Shown here one piece after another: positions 5,914 through 63,134 of a stretch of DNA of 64,000 bases. Within the stretch, counting starts at the first letter, position 1, and the number at the start of each line of letters is the position of its first letter. Below the pieces are notes generated by a model. The model searched no databases. It saw only the letters and a list, made by a program, of their open reading frames with translations, and was not told the DNA's origin. Where the stretch lies: assembly GCA_028714495.1 (NCBI GenBank), contig JAQTMH010000001.1, positions 245,036-309,035 on the forward strand, written 5' to 3'. This DNA is from Patescibacteria group bacterium (GTDB lineage Bacteria; Patescibacteriota; Patescibacteriia; JAHIZJ01). The translations under genes were made by a program, and so were the position numbers.

Positions 5914-6169
5914 TTTAGCCTTCCTCCGTTTGGTACGGGCTGGTCATCGTTGGCCACCAGCAAGCCAGTGTCAAAGAGCATTCCTTCCTCTGAACCCTCA
6001 ATCCGCTATTCCCGATTAATATCAGGAGTCTTGGGATTAAGAGTTCGGAAGAAGTTCCCAGCACCGGAAATCCCGAAGGATAACTAGTGCTGGGAGCCCC
6101 GAACCGGAACCCTGTAACGAAGCGCTTCGCGCCTGGTTCAGGGGACTGGTTCGTGGAAGAAAGAGCAGA

Positions 6170-6556: not shown

Positions 6557-6671
6557 GATACCCTCCTGACGCATAGCGTCTGTCTTGAACCAGGCTGATT
6601 GGATTGACTTCAATCCATACCAACCCAGTTACTAACTTGTAAAGAGCTCCGCTTGAACCTGTCTTTAGTGG

Positions 6672-6830
6672 GGAACCCCGAACCAATTGCGCTAAAGCGC
6701 TTCCGGTTCAGGGCAAGCCCCGAACCGGAGTCCCGTCGAATGACAGAACGACTGGTTTGGGGTAAAGACAGGCTCGAGTGAAGCCCTGACCCCATACCGA
6801 AGCTTTAGCGCCTGGTACGGGGTCAGGGGG
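6672..6830 (+). repeat. compound nested-hairpin element (three tandem units), family 1
   Basis: Units of outer stem CCCCGAACC/GGTT(C/T)GGGG or CCCTGACCCCATACCG/CTGGTACGGGGTCAGGG around central palindromes GCGCTAAAGCGC and AAGCTTTAGCGC. Related copies at 976-1070, 4095-4258, 6054-6160 and 22300-22440. Confidence 0.6.
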
Positions 6831-7010
6831 TGATTTCTTGGCAGCTACGAGAGTCGAACTCGTCATCCTTCCTTGGAAGGAGCCCGAACACCCGGACGGG
6901 CTGACCACCGGGCCACTTTACGTCGGGAAGCCGCCTGATTTATTTCGGCAAGGAGATATATCCTCTCCCGTAACCCGAAATCTTGTTTCGGGTGGTGTTA
7001 AAAGGACGTT

Positions 7011-7085
7011 TCTCTTCCGAACCCGCGAACCTAGATGATTTCCAGACTCGGAAAAGTGGAGGAAGGGCAGGACTTCCTCCGAAGA
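7011..7085 (+). repeat. repeat family 2 (TTC(T/C)GAACCCGCGAACC...GGAGGAAGGGCAGGACTTCCTCC)
   Basis: Second copy at 9100..9172. Partial copy at 3007..3050. 3' part forms hairpin GGAGGAA-gggcaggac-TTCCTCC. Confidence 0.7.
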
Positions 7086-9031: not shown

Positions 9032-9238
9032 ACGGTAGTCGTTCCCCGACTTGATCGGGGAACCTAGAAATTCTACTTAGTGTGTGTAATAAATAACTTC
9101 TCCTCTTCTGAACCCGCGAACCGAATTGATTCCCAGGTTCGGAAGATAGGAGGAAGGGCAGGACTTCCTCCAAGAACGAATGAGCATAGTAATTCTCACA
9201 CCTGCCTGCGAGCTAAGCTCGATTTGTGAGAGGCGAGA

Positions 9239-10069: not shown

Positions 10070-10310
10070 GACCTTCGGTCCTCCTTTGACAGCTTGACCT
10101 GCCGTCTGACATACCCCCATGCTTCATATCCGAGACCGATCATCCCGACCTTTCGACTTCTCTCAAGATCAGGACGCTCCCGCAACCCAGCACCACGTAG
10201 GGCGCCGGGCTCTGGGAGTATTTAATTGTCAAAGTTCTGGTAGCGCTCTCATTTGCAGGAATAACCATCCTTCATCCTTCATTCTTCCTTCTGAATTCTT
10301 AATTCTAAAT

Positions 10311-10455
10311 TGGCTTCTCTCCACCGAACTGGAGGTGAGTTTGTCCATCTTTGAGCCGAAGCTCGATGGACCGGCTGAACTTAGTGAAGGCGTTGAGTTG
10401 TTCACCCGACGCGATCACCTCATCTAGCCACTCTCTTCTCCCCTCCATGTCGGTG
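10311..10455 (+). repeat. 143-bp direct repeat, copy 2
   Basis: See copy 1. The two copies flank the 9239..10069 gene. Confidence 0.85.
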
Positions 10456-11252
10456 CGGAGAACAATCCTATTGCGTATCCCGAAATCTTGTTTCGGGTTT
10501 GTTGTAAAGAACGTGGTCTCTCAATAAGCAGAATGCATTATTTCCCTGCCAGCTCGAGGCCGGTGGACTCGGCCCTTTTGCATGGTTTGTGACCGCCTCC
10601 GGTCCTCGAATTGGCAGGGAAACAATTTGTCTAAAAAGCACTGATCTGGAGGCGAGTCCAAACGCCCTTTGAGCCGAAGCTCGGGCGCTCAAACTGAATT
10701 GTGTTGAAGCCATCGAGGCATGGCCCGATGAGATCAACTCCTTCAGCCTCCTCCCTCCTCCATATCAGTGCTATTTAACGTCGTTCATGGTCCGCCTTGG
10801 GCGGACGGCAATTTAAAATGGGTGACAGTTTGCTGCTGTCAAACCCGAGAAGAGAGTTTTCGACAGAAACAAACCACCACCCATTGATTATGAATGCCGG
10901 TTTTCCAACCGCAATTTGAAGCGATTGGCTCTCTCCTCATTTATTTTATGTAATGTGCTCGCGAACTCTCCCCACAAGATTCTTGAGCATAACTGGAGAG
11001 TATAGCGTACCAAAAAAGACCTGTCAAGACCCCATGAGATGATATTGGCTAATGTAAGCCAAAATATTTTATCAATTAATTTATTTATTGGGTTTTTTAA
11101 CATATTACTACGTAGGCGAGGTTGATCAACCTCGCCTGCTTTGGAAGAGCTTATTTACTATGGAATAGTTGCGCCGGGGTGGTTCTACGCGTTTACTTAC
11201 AAAAAAAACTGTGATAAAGTGACCGCGAAAGTGTTGTTTCGCGACTTTCTTT

Positions 11253-11693: not shown

Positions 11694-12155
11694 ATGAATA
11701 AAAAAGAGATTGTTCTAGTCCTGCACAATGTCCGGAGCCGTTTCAATGTCGGCGCGATTTTTCGAACCGCCGATGGCGCGGGTGTAGCCAAGATTTTTTT
11801 ATGCGGAATTACTCCGCGACCGCCCCACGATAAAATCGCCAAGGTCTCGCTCGGCGCCGAAAAATATATCCCATGGGAATATTACCTCCAAACCGTCCGG
11901 CTTCTAAAAAATCTCAAAAAGCTCGGCTATCAAGTAGTCGCCCTTGAACAATCCAGAAAAAGCCTTCATTATAATAAGTGTGGGTCCGTAAAGCCAGTGG
12001 CCCTGGTGGTTGGCAATGAAATTAGCGGTTTGCCTGCGACTATCCTGAACCTAGCCAACCAAGTAATAGAAATACCTATGCACGGTCAGAAGGAATCGCT
12101 CAACGTGGCTGTGGCAACTGGAATCGTTCTCTTTAATATGATAAATACAAGGTAA
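11694..12155 (+). CDS. SpoU/TrmH-family RNA 2'-O-methyltransferase, minimal TrmL-like
   Basis: 153 aa with a SPOUT core only. Motifs 'FNVGAIFRTADGAG' and 'LVVGNEISGLP...ESLNVAVATGIVLF'. Lies immediately upstream of tRNA-Leu(UAA). Confidence 0.65.
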   Translation: MNKKEIVLVLHNVRSRFNVGAIFRTADGAGVAKIFLCGITPRPPHDKIAKVSLGAEKYIPWEYYLQTVRLLKNLKKLGYQVVALEQSRKSLHYNKCGSVKPVALVVGNEISGLPATILNLANQVIEIPMHGQKESLNVAVATGIVLFNMINTR

Positions 12156-12206: not shown

Positions 12207-12279
12207 GCCGCGGTGGTGGAACCCTGCACCATGTAAGGTGCAGGGCTCCGAACCTGGCATGGTTCGAGGCTGGGTAAAA
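12207..12279 (+). repeat. tRNA-Leu 5'-end-derived hairpin element A
   Basis: Begins GCCGCGGTGGtGGAAC, which is the first 16-17 nt of the downstream tRNA-Leu. Continues into the hairpin CCCTGCACCatgtaaGGTGCAGGG and a second stem. Ends GGGTAAAA. Confidence 0.6.
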
Positions 12280-12311
12280 TTTAATAACAAATATTCTTTA
12301 GAATAGTTGGT

Positions 12312-12413
12312 GCCGCGGTGGCGGAACTGTCCCGTACCACAATGGGTACGGGACACCCAGAACTCCACGCAGTTCTGGGTGGTATCCGGCACCCAACGTG
12401 GTGCCGGGTAAAA
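12312..12413 (+). repeat. tRNA-Leu 5'-end-derived hairpin element B
   Basis: Begins GCCGCGGTGGCGGAAC, identical to the tRNA-Leu 5' end. Followed by three perfect hairpins (GTCCCGTACC/GGTACGGGAC, ACCCAGAACT/AGTTCTGGGT, CCGGCACC/GGTGCCGG). Ends GGGTAAAA. Confidence 0.6.
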
Positions 12414-12445
12414 TCACAAACTGCAAATTATTCAGCCCAACTGGA

Positions 12446-12532
12446 GCCGCGGTGGCGGAACTGGTATACGCGACGGACTTAAAATCCGTTGGAGGAAACT
12501 CCATGAGAGTTCGATTCTCTCCCGCGGCACCA
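12446..12532 (+). tRNA. tRNA-Leu (anticodon UAA), type II with long variable arm, CCA encoded
   Basis: Cloverleaf checked by hand. Acceptor GCCGCGG pairs CCGCGGC. Anticodon stem ACGGA/TCCGT with loop CTTAAAA. Variable arm GGAGgaaaCTCC. T-loop TTCGATT. 3' end ACCA. Confidence 0.85.
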
Positions 12533-12573
12533 GCTGGGCTGAAAAAAGACAGCGGGGAGAACGTGGAGTTTAT

Positions 12574-12906
12574 ATGCATTATGTGTACTTTCTTCTTTCT
12601 CCATTTTCTAGTAAAACATACGTTGGCCGAACAAATTCTCTCGTCAGGAGAATTGCCGAACACCGAAATGGTAAATGCTGGACTACGGTTCGAATGGGAA
12701 AATTCATAGTAATTGGCTACGAGGCCTTTATGTCAAAAAGTGATTCTTTTAGACGCGAGAGGTACTTCAAAACATCAAAGGGCAGATCAACCCTACGATT
12801 AATGTTCCGAGATAGCATCGCCACGACACTTTTCCCTAACCACGCTGGGTTCGGGGTACCTAGTACCGGAACGAAGCGACTGGTGATGGGTAAAATCCCA
12901 AAATAA
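12574..12906 (+). CDS. GIY-YIG nuclease-domain protein (small, stand-alone)
   Basis: N-terminus 'HYVYFLLS...KTYVGRTNSLVRRIAEHRNG' matches the GIY...YIG...R...E...N signature. Confidence 0.55.
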   Translation: MHYVYFLLSPFSSKTYVGRTNSLVRRIAEHRNGKCWTTVRMGKFIVIGYEAFMSKSDSFRRERYFKTSKGRSTLRLMFRDSIATTLFPNHAGFGVPSTGTKRLVMGKIPK

Positions 12907-22178: not shown

Positions 22179-22491
22179 TCTTATCTCCTTTTAAAAAATC
22201 ACGACTTTGCGTTTTTATATCGTATCTCATTGAATCGTTTTTGTAAACCCCCGGCTAATTGACAAAAAATTTCCATTATCCTAATATAAGACCGTCGTTT
22301 GAGGAGTTGTACCGAGTGGCGTGAGGGAACTGGACCGTTATTAGCGCCACAGCAACCTATCCGCCCAGGGCGGACAAGGTGCTCTCCAGCCCCCTGCACA
22401 GGAGTCCTGCGTAAGCTTACGACTGGTACAGGGGAACGACAACTTTCTCTCTGCCTTATGACCACAATGGTCTTTGGGAGGAGGGAGTTCG

Positions 22492-22686
22492 ATGAACATG
22501 GTGGATTATAACTTCCAAGGCGCTACCAAGCCCTGCGAGCAATCAACGCATCAGCCGACGGGACGACCCGAAGGTCCGCACTGCGCTGGGCGGGAAAACT
22601 GTTGCTGGTTCCCGATGTGCGATCTGTCGCACAAAAACCCGCCTGCTCCACCGACCCGGCCTAAGACCGGCCGCATACCTTGCTGA
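22492..22686 (+). CDS. small Cys-rich protein (64 aa), hypothetical
   Basis: ATG at 22492 is preceded by GGGAGGAGGGAG RBS. Sequence ...CEQSTH...HCAGRENCCWFPMCDLSH...PPAPPTRP. An intrinsic terminator follows at 22709-22737. Confidence 0.4.
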   Translation: MNMVDYNFQGATKPCEQSTHQPTGRPEGPHCAGRENCCWFPMCDLSHKNPPAPPTRPKTGRIPC

Positions 22687-22708
22687 GACAGCTCTTCGCA
22701 CGACACAA

Positions 22709-22737
22709 TCGGGGAAGTCAAATGGCTTCCCTTTTTT
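22709..22737 (+). terminator. intrinsic terminator
   Basis: GGGAAG-tcaaatgg-CTTCCC followed by TTTTTTT. Confidence 0.6.
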
Positions 22738-39777: not shown

Positions 39778-39946
39778 GGCTTAAGTATACTCTTCTTCAA
39801 GAAATACCGTAGGCGAGGTTGACCAACCTCGCCTATGTAGTATTTACATTACTATGTCCTAATAAACGACCTTTATCCAAAAAAATGCCCGACCGCATGG
39901 TGGGTCGGGCTCTAGTAAGAACTCTCAACAGTCTTGGATCAAGGTA

Positions 39947-52181: not shown

Positions 52182-52770
52182 TTTCCGCAACCCGCCTGAC
52201 AAAGCGTGGTGGAGACACGGGGAGTCACCGCCATAGGCGCCTGCCCGACGGCTGGCGGGGGTCCGCCTTATCTATAATTTTTTATTTAGTTGTGGCGGAG
52301 AACTCTCCTAATCTCTTCCATTTCCCCGTATTCGAAGTGTAAGCATCAAGGCGTGCCAAGTAAAAATTATGGTTTTTTGGTCTGTACTTGGTGGGCCTAG
52401 GCGGCCCCGGACTCGGATCCGGGGGAACCGCTGTTTCCACAATGCGAATGCGGGGTCTCGCCTGCTTACCTATGCTTGGTGGAGATGGGGGGACTCGGAC
52501 CCCCTACCTCAGTCCCGCAACCGGGTGGAACCGTGCCCCGCCGCATGGCGGGGCGACCTCCGCAACCCGCCTGCCAAAGCGTGGTGGAGACAGGGGGAGT
52601 CGAACCCCCGACCTTCGCAATGCGAATGCGACGCTCTACCAACTGAGCTATGTCCCCACCACGCGGCGGGCAGGTGCGAATGCGGCGCTCTACCAACTGA
52701 GCTAACGGCCCACCCTGGTGCGGGACGAATGCTGCGCTCTACCAGATGAGCTACATCCCCATCAAGCATA
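52182..52770 (-). repeat. array of tRNA-Ala-derived fragments (5' halves and CCA-ended 3' pieces) surrounding the intact tRNA-Ala(CGC)
   Basis: On the minus strand: GGGGATGTAGCTCATCTGGTAGAGCGCAGCATTCG...CACCA; GGGCCGTTAGCTCAGTTGGTAGAGCGCCGCATTCGCA...; the intact tRNA; then GGTAGGGGGTCCGAGTCCCCCCATCTCCACCA, ...CCGAGTCCGGGGCCGCCTAGGCCCACCA and GACTCCCCGTGTCTCCACCA. The overlapping six-frame ORFs here are artefacts. Confidence 0.6.
52582..52657 (-). tRNA. tRNA-Ala (anticodon CGC), CCA encoded
   Basis: Minus strand GGGGACAtaGCTCagttggtaGAGCgTCGCAttcgcatTGCGAaggtcGGGGGttcgactCCCCCTGTCTCCacca. G3:U70 present. Confidence 0.85.
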
Positions 52771-52824
52771 GGCGGGCAGGTCTTACCGCTGGACCATAGG
52801 CCCTAATATTAGCTAATTTTCGAT

Positions 52825-52838
52825 GTTCCACATGGAAC
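52825..52838. promoter_or_regulatory. palindrome GTTCCACATGGAAC (copy 2)
   Basis: Lies 56 bp on the 5' side (minus strand) of the tRNA-Ala fragment array. Confidence 0.45.
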
Positions 52839-52980
52839 AAATATTCCGTCCAACAATTAACCAATCAACTTATAGGCCAATTTCTATAAACAATCTGCTG
52901 ACCTTTGAGGACCCGGACTCTGAACCGGGGGAACCACCATCTCAACCATAGAATAGGTTAGTCTTGCCTGCCCTTGCCCG

Positions 52981-53052: not shown

Positions 53053-53124
53053 ATAGGCTAGGGTAGGCATAATTAACCATTGCTAATCTGTTCTTTTATC
53101 TAATATTAGCAATATAACATATAT

Positions 53125-53138
53125 GTTCCACGTGGAAC
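53125..53138. promoter_or_regulatory. palindrome GTTCCACGTGGAAC (copy 3)
   Basis: Lies ~73 bp 5' (minus strand) of tRNA-Arg(CCU). TTGTTC-N17-TTATAT promoter-like spacing overlaps it on the minus strand. Confidence 0.45.
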
Positions 53139-53195
53139 AATATTTTCACTATTTATTATTTTTGCTTGTACTAGCATTAATTATGCGTCGTAAAA

Positions 53196-62303: not shown

Positions 62304-62681
62304 ATGGAAAAATCAATGAGTAAAGCCGAATTAATGGAAAAAATCGGCGAACGCGCTCACGTTTCAAAAAAACAGGCCGAAGACGTGATGCAATCTTTTG
62401 AAGACATTGTCTATGAAACGCTTCGGTCTGGCGGTGAAGTCACGCTTACCGGCTTCGGTACGTTTCTGGCCAAAGAACGGCATTCGCGCATGGGCGTCAA
62501 TCCGCAAAAACCGACTGAGCGGATAAAAATCCCGGCCGTAACCGTGCCGAAATTCAAGGCCGGCAAAGCCCTGAAAGACGCCTTGAAGCAGGGTGGCGCG
62601 ACAGCCCCAGCTGAACCTGTCAGCCCGCCGCCAGCTGAACCAACGCCTCCAGTCGAACCAACACCCCCGCCCGCTTCTTAA
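62304..62681 (+). CDS. hup: HU-family DNA-binding protein with Pro/Ala-rich C-terminal extension
   Basis: AAAGGAGGG RBS then MEKSMSKAEL. 'GFGTF...R.GVNPQ' HU arm. Tail 'APAEPVSPPPAEPTPPVEPTPPPAS'. Confidence 0.85.
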   Translation: MEKSMSKAELMEKIGERAHVSKKQAEDVMQSFEDIVYETLRSGGEVTLTGFGTFLAKERHSRMGVNPQKPTERIKIPAVTVPKFKAGKALKDALKQGGATAPAEPVSPPPAEPTPPVEPTPPPAS

Positions 62682-62800
62682 AAGAAGGCCTTTTATCACT
62701 TGGGAAAAGAAGTGTCCATCCTGCCCATTTTCCTGACTGAAATTGATCGGGTGTTTCTTGCCTTTTTCATGATTGTTTATTATTCTAACGAATACTTCAT

Positions 62801-62875
62801 GCGCCCGTAGTTCAATGGATAGAATGCTTGGCTTCGGACCAAGAGGTTGGGGGTTCGAGTCCCTCCGGGCGCACT
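62801..62875 (+). tRNA. tRNA-Arg (anticodon UCG), CCA not encoded
   Basis: Acceptor GCGCCCG/CGGGCGC. Anticodon stem CTTGG/CCAAG with loop CTTCGGA. T-loop TTCGAGT. Confidence 0.85.
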
Positions 62876-62924
62876 TTAGAAACCACAATGCATCTTGAAT
62901 AAGTAAGCTTGTGTTTGATATAGA

Positions 62925-63052
62925 GTGGACTCGAAGGGCACCCTGCACCATGACGGTGCAGGGTAGAGCTAGAATCCGCGCCCCACACTCGATTCTGAAC
63001 CTGAGTGTAGCGACTGGTTCAGAGAGTGGTGCGGTGGCCTCCGGGCGCACCA
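62925..63052 (+). repeat. tRNA-Arg 3'-end-derived hairpin element
   Basis: Contains CCCTGCACCatgacgGGTGCAGGG, the same hairpin as element A near tRNA-Leu. A tRNA-like shell GCGCCCC...[TCTGAACC/GGTTCAGA stem]...CCTCCGGGCGCACCA reuses the acceptor ends of tRNA-Arg(UCG) and adds CCA. Confidence 0.55.
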
Positions 63053-63134
63053 TTGATACTAGTTCGAATCAATTCACAAAGTGGTAAAGTAGTTTTACCT
63101 GCTTTTTTATATAAAAGGGACTCCGAGCAGATGC

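Follow-up and report, generated by a model that had tools for sequence, protein, structure and literature searches.

A tRNA-like shell behind a Patescibacteria tRNA-Arg(UCG) gene as the probable remnant of a small non-coding element

The tRNA-Arg(UCG) gene and the repeat of its 3' end

tRNA genes are classic landing pads of mobile DNA, and to our knowledge the invaders of such genes are either large integrase-bearing islands and phages or self-splicing introns. A 64,000-nucleotide stretch of a Patescibacteria contig (hereafter, the window) raises the question of what else may land there: near its right end a tRNA-Arg(UCG) gene is followed by a tRNA-sized shell that carries the ends of the tRNA around an unrelated interior. 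We consider it fairly probable that 62875–63052 is what remains, after decay, of a small non-coding element targeting the 3' part of CPR tRNA genes. Unless stated otherwise, the features described below are on the + strand.

The tRNA-Arg(UCG) gene is functional and occupies 62801–62873 according to Rfam (tRNA model, 70.7 bits) and 62801–62874 according to ARAGORN. It lies directly 3' of the HU gene in all syntenic relatives (L083, L085, L087–L090, L114, and L115), and the tRNA-Arg genes of all relatives encode CCA. In the window this triplet is replaced by CTT (62874–62876), which may be read as a mutated CCA and the left junction of an insert. A second tRNA 3' end was found at 63038–63052, comprising the T-stem 3' strand, the acceptor 3' strand, the discriminator, and an intact CCA; because the relatives all encode CCA, it is this distal copy that keeps the ancestral state. 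The first 13 nucleotides of the copy, CCTCCGGGCGCAC (63038–63050), match 62862–62874 at 13/13 positions and are followed by CA, completing CCA, while by our own arithmetic an exact 13-mer common to the 74-nt tRNA is expected by chance within ~ 300 nt only ~ 3e-4 times. The tRNA 3' end is duplicated in the window, and the direct repeats enclose 163 nt. We read 63038–63052 as the border of the insert, formed by a tRNA tail that was either displaced or carried by the element.

The region of the tRNA-Arg gene and the shell is reproduced base for base in Logan contig L082, built by a different assembler from possibly the same reads, so it is not an artefact of MAG assembly. Logan unitigs end exactly at ...CCGGGCGCAC and overlap by 30 nt, which shows that some branch exists there. 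An insert-free allele would read tRNA...GCGCACCA|TTGATAC, and no empty-site allele of the window's species was seen. Beyond the shell, a terminator-like hairpin (GGTAAA-GTAGT-TTTACC, followed by TGCTTTTTT) was read from the sequence at 63083–63108, and it suggests that the tRNA, the sequence trailing it, and the shell may form one transcription unit. A consensus terminator scan passed over this hairpin, whose stem is too poor in G-C pairs, and neither promoter nor terminator consensus searches at the three tRNA loci of the window were informative.

No transposase, integrase, or GIY-YIG gene was found at the tRNA-Arg locus. This bears on a first alternative, namely that a tyrosine-integrase island or prophage once sat at the tRNA-Arg 3' end and has been deleted almost entirely, leaving attL and attR 176 nt apart. 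Twenty-one IMG/VR viral contigs contain the 21-nt tRNA 3' end, in several instances at the end of the contig, and the gene content between tRNA-Arg and tRNA-Lys differs among relatives, as such an island would lead one to expect. However, the 163 nt between the repeats contain neither an integrase gene or fragment nor any credible ORF; the sole ORF over the repeats is a 229-aa antisense frame (62364–63053) that also crosses the HU gene and the tRNA. We regard the island as highly improbable, also in view of the recurrence of the insert elsewhere (below). A phage origin was rejected, as the 21-mer is not lineage-specific though present in the 21 viral contigs.

The shell at 62978–63052

The shell is 75 nt long and resembles tRNA-Arg at its two ends only. 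Its 5' end, GCGCCCC (62978–62984), has 6/7 bases in common with the tRNA 5' acceptor strand, the leading GCGCCC being identical to tRNA-Arg positions 1–6, and without its CCA the shell is, at 72 nt, one nucleotide shorter than the tRNA (73 nt). Both ends stand in the tRNA register at an offset of 176–177 nt. The first-pass annotation had described a segment sharing the acceptor ends of tRNA-Arg(UCG) plus CCA, and this was borne out by GCGCCC on the 5' side and by 13/13 positions plus CA on the 3' side.

The interior (62985–63037) is unrelated to the tRNA and holds interleaved stems, where the first description had an 8-bp stem and other hairpins. A perfect 8-bp stem, TCTGAACC/GGTTCAGA (62994–63001 with 63016–63023), resembles the second hairpin (hp2) of the module treated below; it interleaves with an ACACTC/GAGTGT stem (62985–62990 with 63003–63008). 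The interior segment AGCGACTGGT (63009–63018) is also present in module C behind a GIY-YIG gene, and TGGTGCG (63028–63034) is able to pair with CGCACCA (63046–63052).

The further suggestion that the shell might adopt an aminoacylation-competent, tRNA-like fold found no support. Across the window ARAGORN made no call at the shell, its only call at the tRNA-Arg locus being the tRNA itself, and a permissive Rfam scan of 62870–63120 returned no tRNA, tmRNA, tRNA-like, or other family at E ≤ 10. The minimum free energy structure (−36.3 kcal/mol) pairs the 5' end elsewhere; enforcing the acceptor gave −32.2 kcal/mol, a cost of 4.1, and the six-pair acceptor helix has a predicted ensemble probability of ~ 0.006. 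A diverged tRNA interior was rejected, the global alignment to the tRNA being no better than that of shuffled sequences (1274/2000 as good), and among the syntenic relatives the shell interior is conserved in none. The shell is therefore most likely a composite scar, neither a tRNA mimic nor a working RNA, and the 62.8-kb locus is better annotated as a tRNA gene plus an element remnant than as a second tRNA-like gene.

Known RNA classes were also considered for the locus. A tmRNA or two-piece tmRNA was dismissed: the GGAUUCGA-like box is reminiscent of the tmRNA 5' region, yet no acceptor strand precedes it, and neither ARAGORN nor Rfam called a tmRNA in the window. Rfam, run with gathering and permissive E-values on the window, the trailer, and L090, gave only the five tRNAs. 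A group I intron was set aside, with no Intron_gpI match in the window at E ≤ 5, as was an archaeal-type intron, for which no model matched; intact tRNA copies are always present.

The exact register, the near-tRNA length, and the retention of both ends could also come from a single tandem duplication of tRNA-Arg and its spacer (period ~ 177 nt), the second copy having decayed and its interior having been overwritten by palindromes. A weak 19-nt similarity (79%) between 62914–62932 and 63105–63123 would fit such an event, but its offset is 191 nt and not 177, and spacer and post-shell sequence are otherwise unrelated. In addition, the interior has no residual tRNA similarity although both ends are perfect, and the duplication leaves unexplained three things described below: a left-end motif shared with the tRNA-Lys locus of L087, an antisense box, and the elements at other tRNAs and in other genomes. 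We judge it very unlikely. The original proposal was to fall if the similarities recurred nowhere else and a single local duplication explained them; the tRNA-end duplications do recur, at other tRNA loci and in other genomes.

It should be noted that GCGCCC in exact tRNA register is left unexplained by the insertion scar that we prefer. By our own arithmetic, a 6-mer no more than 3 nt from register is expected in roughly 0.2–0.5% of cases, and this segment may be a relic of a 5' end or chance. In L085, a tRNA-Arg 5' fragment is broken after position 7 by inserted hairpins.

Trailer elements at the tRNA genes of relatives

The comparison set consisted of syntenic Patescibacteria contigs reached via protein clusters. 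A scan of a genome collection with YmdB had as best matches CPR and Firmicutes contigs at 52% identity that lacked synteny around the tRNA, and a metagenome scan with the 33-mer of the tRNA-Arg anticodon arm recovered the L083 contig only. Flanking gene order is kept throughout the relatives compared, and in several genomes a non-coding trailer lies 3' of tRNA-Arg, tRNA-Lys, or tRNA-Glu. This T-loop-anchored element was defined from L013, L083, L087, and L090. In its intact form the left end, next to the tRNA, is AT-rich; a box antisense to that tRNA's T loop comes next, then two to three covarying hairpins, and last a copy of the tRNA tail that spans the T loop to CCA. The insert is about 95–180 nt and has neither an integrase gene nor any other ORF. 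Folding predictions pair the box with the T-loop portion of the second tRNA copy (helix P1), which closes a multi-hairpin core.

The tRNA-Arg gene of L090 exemplifies this layout, being followed by GAATCGAAC (antisense to its T loop, GTTCGATTC), by hairpins, and by a 24-nt perfect copy of CGATTCCCTCCGAGGGCACCAGTA. The Saccharibacteria contig L013 has trailers after tRNA-Arg(UCG), tRNA-Lys, and tRNA-Glu; those at Arg and Glu are predicted to fold as a three-way junction with a 13–14-nt tail, and between them there are 7 compensatory pairs; pairing reaches 98%, whereas sliding the 3' partners leaves it at 49% or less. Second copies of the tRNA tail measure 24 nt in L090, 18–26 nt in L013, and 45 nt in L123, and one is also present at tRNA-Lys of L087. 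Local alignment scores were 119 for the L087-Lys and L090-Arg trailers, 109 for L083-Arg and L083-Lys, and 81 for L013-Arg and L013-Glu, none of which was reached by any of 500 shuffles. The box matches the T-loop variant of each tRNA (GAGTC, GAATC, or GATTC).

An antisense T-arm match of at least 9 nt within 200 nt 3' was present at 8/154 tRNA loci examined, and these comprise six trailer-bearing CPR tRNAs, one self-complementary T loop of a duplicate, and one match that is probably chance. Copies of part of a tRNA, 12 nt or longer and no more than 1.5 kb away, accompany 10/42 tRNAs in these CPR loci versus 8/143 elsewhere. Occupancy is patchy: in L090 a trailer is present at Arg and missing from Lys, in L087 the Lys trailer is intact and the Arg trailer decayed, the one at tRNA-Arg of L083 is decayed, and none is present at tRNA-Arg of L085, L114, or L115. 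Together with the module described in the next section, the trailer makes two element families of defined structure that are patchily distributed among syntenic genomes. We infer that these elements move as DNA, and a putative enzyme and mechanism of movement are proposed below. The trailer core motif had no viral match. In L090 the 24-nt distal copy is perfect though the spacer has diverged from that of L087, a combination that needs recent insertion, gene conversion, or selection.

The sequence between the window's tRNA and the shell can be set against this layout part by part. Its AT-rich left part (62877–62926) opens with ten nucleotides, TAGAAACCAC (62877–62886), that also start the trailer of tRNA-Lys in L087, at the same offset from the tRNA end: L087 reads CCA|TAGAAACCAC and the window CTT|TAGAAACCAC (10/10 in local alignment; 43/1000 shuffles as good). 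The 5' box GGACTCGAAGGG (62927–62938) is antisense to the tRNA T loop and T stem, TTCGAGTCC (62854–62862). Within it, GGACTCGAA stands at +53 after the tRNA, complementary to TTCGAGTCC, where the boxes of other trailers lie at +22 to +54, and it matches the window's own T-loop variant, GAGTC. Among relatives this box is the most conserved trailer block, with invariant columns in alignment A1. Past a hairpin at 62940–62964 the trailer core continues as AGAGCTAGAATCC (62965–62977), whose GAGCT block aligns in A1 with (A/C)AGTGAGCT(A/C)G of L083 and L090.

The window has the position downstream of a tRNA, the second 3' copy with CCA, and the antisense box at 20–55 nt that mark a trailer. Helix P1, however, cannot form there, as the distal copy begins no earlier than the T-stem 3' strand and is preceded by GGTGCGGTGG, which cannot pair with the box; for want of this partner the copy is called degenerate. 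The window insert aligns only weakly with the trailers of relatives: without constraint, the best local alignments span 10–16 nt with 33–43/1000 shuffles as good, and others are not significant; the box region accounts for the value of 33/1000 and the core does not stand out. Homology of the window's copy to the trailer family is thus proposed with moderate confidence, largely from position and architecture.

In the reading that we favour, insertion or recombination inside the segment from T loop to CCA would leave the tRNA intact and set a second copy of its tail at the distal border of the insert, and this copy would be the 3' side of the shell. The window's copy would then have degenerated, its proximal CCA changing to CTT and the T-loop part of its distal copy being lost, and its core would have been interrupted by hairpins of the two-hairpin module, the family that accompanies Slx1-like GIY-YIG genes.

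The same comparisons could be taken to mean that trailer and shell work as a structured non-coding RNA transcribed together with the tRNA, the window's copy being divergent but functional. Here, the helix between box and T-loop copy would present a single-stranded acceptor strand plus CCA as a decoy or substrate for enzymes recognising CCA or tRNA ends, or would serve as a processing or termination device. The covarying helices of the L013 copies, with their 7 compensatory pairs, speak for an RNA, as does a 5' box that follows the T-loop variant of each tRNA. Elements are found inside a tRNA array with a terminator at its end only, a terminator-like hairpin lies 3' of the window's shell, and a trailer follows tRNA-Arg(UCG) both in Saccharibacteria (L013) and in the window's lineage. 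Against this, the missing partner of the box makes the defining helix impossible in the window, and the minimum free energy structure of the shell has no exposed tail like that of L013. L085, L114, and L115 lack the element at the orthologous tRNA, L083 and L087 have it in decayed form, near-identical copies at several tRNAs whose presence varies among close relatives are typical of mobile DNA, and no Rfam family matches. We therefore consider a functional RNA unlikely.

The recurrence also weighs against the integrase island considered above, since the same short insert with a conserved non-coding core and covarying hairpins, at several tRNAs and in several genomes, is not what independent near-total deletions would yield. 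We know of no antisense T-loop box as a feature of att sites. The mobile trailer that we favour does resemble the attL/attR arrangement of tyrosine-integrase islands and prophages (Islander, PMC4383910), in which DNA inserts in the 3' part of a tRNA gene, the tRNA stays intact, a 3' fragment is left at the far end, and the repeat begins in or near the T loop. It differs from them (PMC4383910) in being ~ 95–180 nt and ORF-less, with a covarying hairpin core, a T-loop box, and several copies per genome, each at another tRNA.

The two-hairpin module and GIY-YIG genes

The hairpin in the window's trailer core, ACCCTGCACC-ATGAC-GGTGCAGGGT (62940–62964), has a perfect 10-bp stem of the hp1 type. The claim that it also occurs in element A at the tRNA-Leu(UAA) locus was confirmed at 12222–12245, on the same strand, where it forms the first hairpin of two-hairpin module A. 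The two share a 9-bp stem and the first three loop bases. Exact CCCTGCACC sites number only two per strand in the 64 kb, and by our own arithmetic ~ 0.008 shared 12-mers are expected there by chance. The hairpin at 62940–62964 is specific to the window, being absent at the same position in L083, L087, and L090, and it is probably an insertion into an older trailer core.

For the module, a covariance model (R1) was trained on tRNA-Leu loci from other genomes together with the window's element A. Its layout is hp1, CCCnnnACC-loop-GGTnnnGGG, followed by hp2, with 6 compensatory pairs and hairpin loops of the forms ACRNNG and YNGCGY. Element A, itself in the model, scored 59 bits, element B 54, and element C 36, while 62936–62976 scored 19.1 bits (E = 0.005), which speaks for the CCCTGCACC hairpin as a member of a real family, as had been supposed. 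At 62936–62976 only hp1 is clear; the hp2-like stem of the shell (62994–63023) is set 29 nt apart and has a 14-nt loop. The hp2 pattern gave a single viral match, within a coding sequence of a GC-rich phage, which was put down to chance.

The module is found mainly in tRNA loops, most often the anticodon loop of tRNA-Leu, and it accompanies a GIY-YIG gene. In the window, the sole tblastn match with both GIY-YIG types was 12574–12903, by tRNA-Leu, and the 62.8-kb region gave none; no IS200/IS605-type Y1 transposase (RAYT) was found among ten window ORFs scanned against Pfam. Homologues adjoin tRNA-Leu (L116, L118, and L119–121), tRNA-Arg (L085/L086), and tRNA-Gln (L123–125), and displaced tRNA fragments and junction hairpins border these genes. 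The window's tRNA-Leu gene has a GIY-YIG ORF within or next to it, and L085/L086 have one at their orthologous tRNA-Arg. GGGTAAAAT had been considered as a promoter −10 box or coding remnant and proved to combine the end of hairpin 2 with the 3' half of the anticodon loop of tRNA-Leu(UAA). The GIY-YIG product, ~ 85 aa, is a minimal member of the bacterial Slx1/UPF0213 group and a putative nuclease; the proteins of window 12574–12822, L119, and L123 measure 83–91 aa. The nearest solved relatives are 1zg2 and 1ywl (PMC1564403), and the NCBIfam group-I-intron endonuclease model gave 18 bits against a cut-off of 56.

The GIY-YIG cassettes appear to destroy a tRNA gene and substitute their own copy. 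GIY-YIG homing genes (T4 seg/mob, fungal mitochondrial HEGs) are comparable in that a nuclease gene interrupts or adjoins an essential RNA gene, part of which is duplicated while a functional copy is kept, and in that occurrence is patchy among close relatives; a probable decay of window elements A and B and of the nests at tRNA-Ala to ORF-less remnants would fit a homing cycle. Unlike I-TevI-type enzymes, however, the protein here has no DNA-binding domain, and unlike intron-borne homing genes the cassette carries a whole replacement tRNA and no self-splicing intron. The hairpins themselves recall REP/BIME sequences, MITEs, and mitochondrial GC clusters or double-hairpin elements (PMC2800124, PMC4478555), which are likewise short, GC-rich single or double hairpins with covarying stems and conserved loop-proximal bases, dispersed between genes and in structural-RNA genes or pseudogenes and often at rearrangement junctions. 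The module is set apart from these (PMC2800124, PMC4478555) by its two distinct hairpins, its placement in tRNA loops, and its GIY-YIG partner.

Taken further, the data would allow that CPR bacteria hold an undescribed guild of tRNA-gene parasites, made up of guide-box trailers and GIY-YIG cassettes, with the shell a fossil of the first overprinted by the second. The T-loop box would then be a base-pairing guide for insertion, and a changed box would retarget the trailer; the cassettes would break a tRNA loop and bring a replacement tRNA, repeated rounds giving Russian-doll tRNA genes. This is a speculative proposal, and as a whole we doubt it. If the elements are real mobile elements, they would represent a compact insertion system, possibly guided by base pairing, give a function to the enigmatic bacterial Slx1/UPF0213 nucleases, and explain the tRNA-fragment clutter that confuses CPR genome annotation. 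Tail-copying trailers with a T-loop box, ~ 85-aa GIY-YIG cassettes, and three-deep tRNA nests are apparently new, no description having been found in the literature searched.

The first-pass annotation had taken the tRNA-Arg locus as the third tRNA locus at which tRNA-end duplications bound hairpins, and such duplications were indeed seen at three window loci and on many CPR contigs. Its extension to one element family or mechanism held as to recurrence and not as to singleness, there being at least two families, with a third pattern at tRNA-Ala. There, whole tRNA genes are nested in anticodon loops, up to three deep. Disrupted tRNAs of archaea (with introns at 37/38, split, or permuted; PMC4390854, PMC4090602) are similar in having breaks at 37/38 and in other loops, and tRNA halves with complementary flanks. 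The present case differs from them (PMC4390854, PMC4090602) in that no bulge-helix-bulge motif or splicing endonuclease is evident here, the organism is a bacterium, and decaying pseudogenes stand beside an intact copy. Each insert at the tRNA-Ala locus is a complete tRNA gene, and the inserts lie exactly between positions 37 and 38.

The repeat downstream of tRNA-Arg(UCG)

The tRNA-Arg(UCG) gene was called by both ARAGORN and Rfam at 62801–62873/4, and the gene end was found to be followed by CTT in place of CCA. The last 13 nt of the tRNA, CCTCCGGGCGCAC, are present as an exact second copy 176 nt downstream (63038–63050), followed by CA to give CCA, while tRNA positions 1–6 (GCGCCC) are repeated at 62978. 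The segment between these ends (62978–63052, 75 nt with CCA; hereafter the shell) measures 72 nt vs 73 nt for the tRNA, and its length and register are nearly those of a tRNA. It contains a perfect internal stem, TCTGAACC/GGTTCAGA, and upstream of it is the perfect hairpin ACCCTGCACC-ATGAC-GGTGCAGGGT, of which the 9-bp stem and first three loop bases are identical at 12222–12245 beside tRNA-Leu. All of the features described in the first-pass annotation, namely the tRNA-end repeats, the internal stem, and the hairpin in common with the tRNA-Leu locus, are present and are not attributable to chance, and the whole region was reproduced in a Logan assembly of run SRR22315509. Two unitig-derived Logan contigs from this run (L081 and L082) have an overlap of exactly 30 nt at 62845–62874 and break at ...CCGGGCGCAC, the tRNA end. 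The assembly graph therefore branches there, reflecting either a variant allele or the tRNA-Arg of another organism.

The shell had also been described as tRNA-like, and this was not borne out. A permissive Rfam scan of 62870–63120 returned zero matches to tRNA, tmRNA, or tRNA-like families, and the interior aligned to the tRNA-Arg no better than 64% of shuffles. Nor did folding in silico give an aminoacylation-competent structure: the acceptor helix was not formed in the minimum-energy fold (−36.3 kcal/mol), and enforcing it cost 4.1 kcal/mol, with an ensemble probability of ~0.006. A further tRNA-like shell, uncalled by ARAGORN and Rfam, was observed on the minus strand at 6843–6935, within noncoding 6610–7010. 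Its acceptor-like helix is 7 bp long (GGCGGCT/AGCTGCC), its T arm is canonical (ACGAG-TTCGACT-CTCGT), and hairpins make up the interior (minimum energy −44.3 kcal/mol, z −2.6); long hairpins with loop-proximal ends ACC/GGT lie 3′ of it, and the window holds no partner tRNA.

A trailer family at tRNA-Arg, tRNA-Lys, and tRNA-Glu genes

The genes neighboring the locus encode RNase Y, YmdB, HU, and DUF1385, and the window YmdB is identical to a protein annotated from a Patescibacteria MAG. Comparison contigs with YmdB 61–73% identical were taken as relatives, and gene order was kept, allowing locus-by-locus comparison: MS channel, tRNA-Arg(CCU)/tRNA-Ala(CGC), bactofilin ... RNase Y, YmdB, HU, tRNA-Arg(UCG), variable genes, and tRNA-Lys(CUU). 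CCA is encoded by the tRNA-Arg(UCG) gene of every relative. Between tRNA-Arg(UCG) and tRNA-Lys(CUU), the gene content differs in each relative (L083–L090), with one to four hypothetical genes, and this segment behaves like a variable island. The T arms of the two tRNAs are identical in L083 and closely similar in L087 and L090, and either tRNA is able to carry a noncoding element, here termed the trailer.

In L090, an AT-rich stretch separates tRNA-Arg from a box, GAATCGAAC, that is the reverse complement of the tRNA's own T loop, GTTCGATTC; after the box come hairpins and a perfect 24-nt copy of the tRNA, which starts in the T loop and ends with CCA plus GTA. The same trailer block is present in L083 and L087 with the distal tRNA copy decayed. 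The trailers after tRNA-Arg and tRNA-Lys are near-identical in L083, and the L087 tRNA-Lys trailer is nearly that of L090 tRNA-Arg; L090 tRNA-Lys and the tRNA-Arg genes of L085, L114, and L115 are without a trailer. In L013, a contig labeled Saccharibacteria, the architecture follows tRNA-Arg(UCG), tRNA-Lys, and tRNA-Glu within a tRNA array. The Arg and Glu trailers there have an identical 38-nt core, and both are predicted to fold as a three-way junction: the box is base-paired to the T-loop portion of the distal copy, and a 13–14-nt tail of the acceptor 3′ strand plus NCCA stays free. Seven compensatory pair changes separate the two, one of them at a box position that follows the T-loop difference of tRNA-Arg and tRNA-Glu, and pairing was 98% vs at most 49% with the partners slid.

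When the 200 nt downstream of 154 distinct tRNA loci were scanned for sequence antisense to the T arm over at least 9 nt, eight loci were positive. Six of these were trailer-bearing tRNAs of ultra-small Patescibacteria (CPR), matched at +22 to +54; one of the others was the self-complementary T loop of a duplicate and one was probably due to chance. The trailer is a repeated, structured, ORF-less element whose presence varies among close relatives and whose two ends are both tailored to the partner tRNA. The main rival to a tRNA-targeting element is that trailers are selected RNAs, with which the covariation is compatible as well. For the element reading, we infer mobility at the DNA level, an enzyme, and a role for the antisense box as guide or structural helix.

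Like members of the trailer family, the window insert comes after the orthologous tRNA. Its initial ten bases, TAGAAACCAC, directly at the tRNA end, are the same as at L087 tRNA-Lys (following CTT in the window vs CCA in L087), a box at +53, GGACTCGAAGGG, fits the window's own T-loop variant (TTCGAGTCC), and a distal tRNA-tail copy with CCA is present. Similarity outside the family-shared blocks was weak. For the left end and box region, 33–43 of 1000 shuffles were as good, and the core had no significant similarity to the family in a shuffle test. The distal copy is without its T-loop part, so the defining box/T-loop helix is unable to form. We infer homology, with moderate confidence, and regard the window copy as a degenerate trailer member. 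The GCGCCC in tRNA register at the shell 5′ end is not accounted for by the trailer model; a possible parallel is a displaced tRNA-Arg 5′ fragment in L085, broken after position 7 by inserted hairpins.

Two-hairpin modules and GIY-YIG genes

The tRNA-Leu(UAA) locus (12207–12906) contains displaced tRNA-Leu 5′ fragments at 12207–12221 and 12312–12329, with a hairpin module after each one (elements A and B). Downstream are the intact tRNA (12446–12532), a small GIY-YIG gene (12574 to ~12822, in an ORF extending to 12906), and module C (12828–12899). Homologues of the ORF (12574–12906) are 82–91 amino acids long, so its last ~27 codons are hairpin module. They lie a few bases from tRNA-Leu genes in three unrelated contig sets. 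In L119, a nest reads, from the outside inward, outer tRNA-Leu 5′ fragment, another tRNA-Leu 5′ half that stops in its anticodon loop, two-hairpin module, and GIY-YIG gene, continuing with an entire tRNA-Leu, another module, the corresponding 3′ half, and the outer 3′ end; this was confirmed in two more independent assemblies (L120 and L121). Set against L119, element B resembles a cassette whose GIY-YIG ORF has been lost. Within the anticodon loop, the module is placed between ACT(C/T)A and AAAAT, and the GGGTAAAAT recurring in all three window elements (A, B, and C) consists of the hairpin 2 end and the remaining tRNA-Leu(UAA) loop.

An alignment of five modules, with six compensatory pairs, was the basis of covariance model R1, which matched element B (54 bits), element C (36 bits), and 62936–62976 (19 bits, E = 0.005). 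The hairpin at the shell locus does recur, as had been proposed, in the copy beside tRNA-Leu and probably through this family match. Weaker matches away from any tRNA were found at 6050–6147 (E = 0.006) and 10182–10225 (E = 0.015), the latter with the hairpin 1 loop of the L119 module (ACGTAG), and the module family is therefore dispersed beyond tRNA loci. Perfect hairpins with stem ends ACC/GGT number nine in the window vs a mean of 1.0 and a maximum of 3 in shuffles.

The hairpin upstream of the shell probably belongs to this second family, distinct from the trailer; only hairpin 1 of the module is clear at that site. Trailers of the relatives are without the hairpin seen at 62940–62964, which is therefore read as a later insertion into an older trailer in the window. 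The duplicated tRNA tail, the two patchily distributed element families, and their structures are direct observations, and the best reading of the Arg shell is a composite scar: the tRNA tail would have been duplicated by a tRNA-targeting trailer, which would then have decayed and been overlaid with hairpins from the GIY-YIG-associated family.

GIY-YIG genes of a more distant type precede tRNA-Arg(UCG) in L085/L086 and tRNA-Gln in L123–L125. In both settings, a displaced 5′ fragment and a common hairpin (GACCGGGRTCCCGG) are upstream of the gene, and in L123 the tRNA 3′ part is repeated downstream, perfectly over 45 nt. Directly upstream of the window tRNA-Leu locus, 11694–12155 encodes a 153-amino acid SpoU-family methyltransferase of TrmL-like size, TrmL being the enzyme that methylates the tRNA-Leu wobble base in E. 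coli. The GIY-YIG proteins are of the minimal bacterial Slx1/UPF0213 group, and a fusion of an Slx1-type GIY-YIG domain to a TrmH-like SPOUT methylase has been published (PMC1564403). Neighborhoods such as this one, with a SpoU methyltransferase beside GIY-YIG/tRNA-Leu, might account for that fusion.

The nearest known systems, each with some features in common with these elements, are integrase-borne islands at tRNA genes (PMC4383910), GIY-YIG homing endonuclease genes, repetitive hairpin elements (PMC2800124), and disrupted archaeal tRNA genes (PMC4390854). None of the four combines a tiny ORF-less insert, a T-loop antisense box, a minimal nuclease with replacement tRNA, and nesting, and no description of the trailer, GIY-YIG-cassette, or nested-tRNA arrangements was found in the literature searched.

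Nested tRNA-Ala genes and other repeats

On the minus strand, nested tRNA-Ala genes occupy 52389–52803. Three tRNA 5′ parts (starts ~52803, 52760, and 52711) precede an intact tRNA-Ala(CGC) at 52582–52657, and the corresponding 3′ parts come after it in the opposite order (ends ~52524, 52477, and 52389). Positions 37 and 38 bracket the innermost insert exactly, and the flanks of this insert are complementary (GCGTGGT/ACCACGC, CCA included). One layer is present in L083 and L085 and none in L087 and L090. The inner tRNA-Ala genes of the window and L083 share 98% identity with each other vs only 76% with the L087/L090 gene. The innermost shell of the window is of the L087/L090 type, agreeing by manual count at 35 of its first 37 nt. 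The inner tRNA and its shells are of different lineages; thus, a foreign tRNA-Ala copy landed in and replaced the resident gene.

The tRNA-Ala 3′ end with its trailer (GACTCCCCGTGTCTCCACCACGCTTTGTCAGGCGGGTTGCGG) occurs once more ~340 nt beyond the nest (52200–52245, minus strand). The 16-bp perfect palindrome TGTTCCACGTGGAACA and a one-mismatch variant (53124–53139 and 52824–52839) flank the tRNA-Arg(CCU)/tRNA-Ala cluster, are conserved at matching positions in all syntenic relatives (L083, L085, L087, and L090), and are possibly an operator. In another CPR contig (L116, 3142–3500), tRNA-Gly(UCC) is followed by two 3′ halves starting in the anticodon loop, the second with ~50 nt of hairpins in place of the T loop.

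Long, hairpin-rich noncoding stretches of the window (10430–11250 and 22290–22720) gave no Rfam match at gathering score, the sole weak one being a SAM riboswitch at 22304–22425 (22.6 bits vs a gathering score of 44.4). Two other hairpins each occur as a pair of copies in the window: GGAGGAAGGGCAGGACTTCCTCC, in identical copies at 7058–7080 and 9149–9171, and AGGCGAGGTTGA(T/C)CAACCTCGCCT, at 11114–11137 and 39810–39835.
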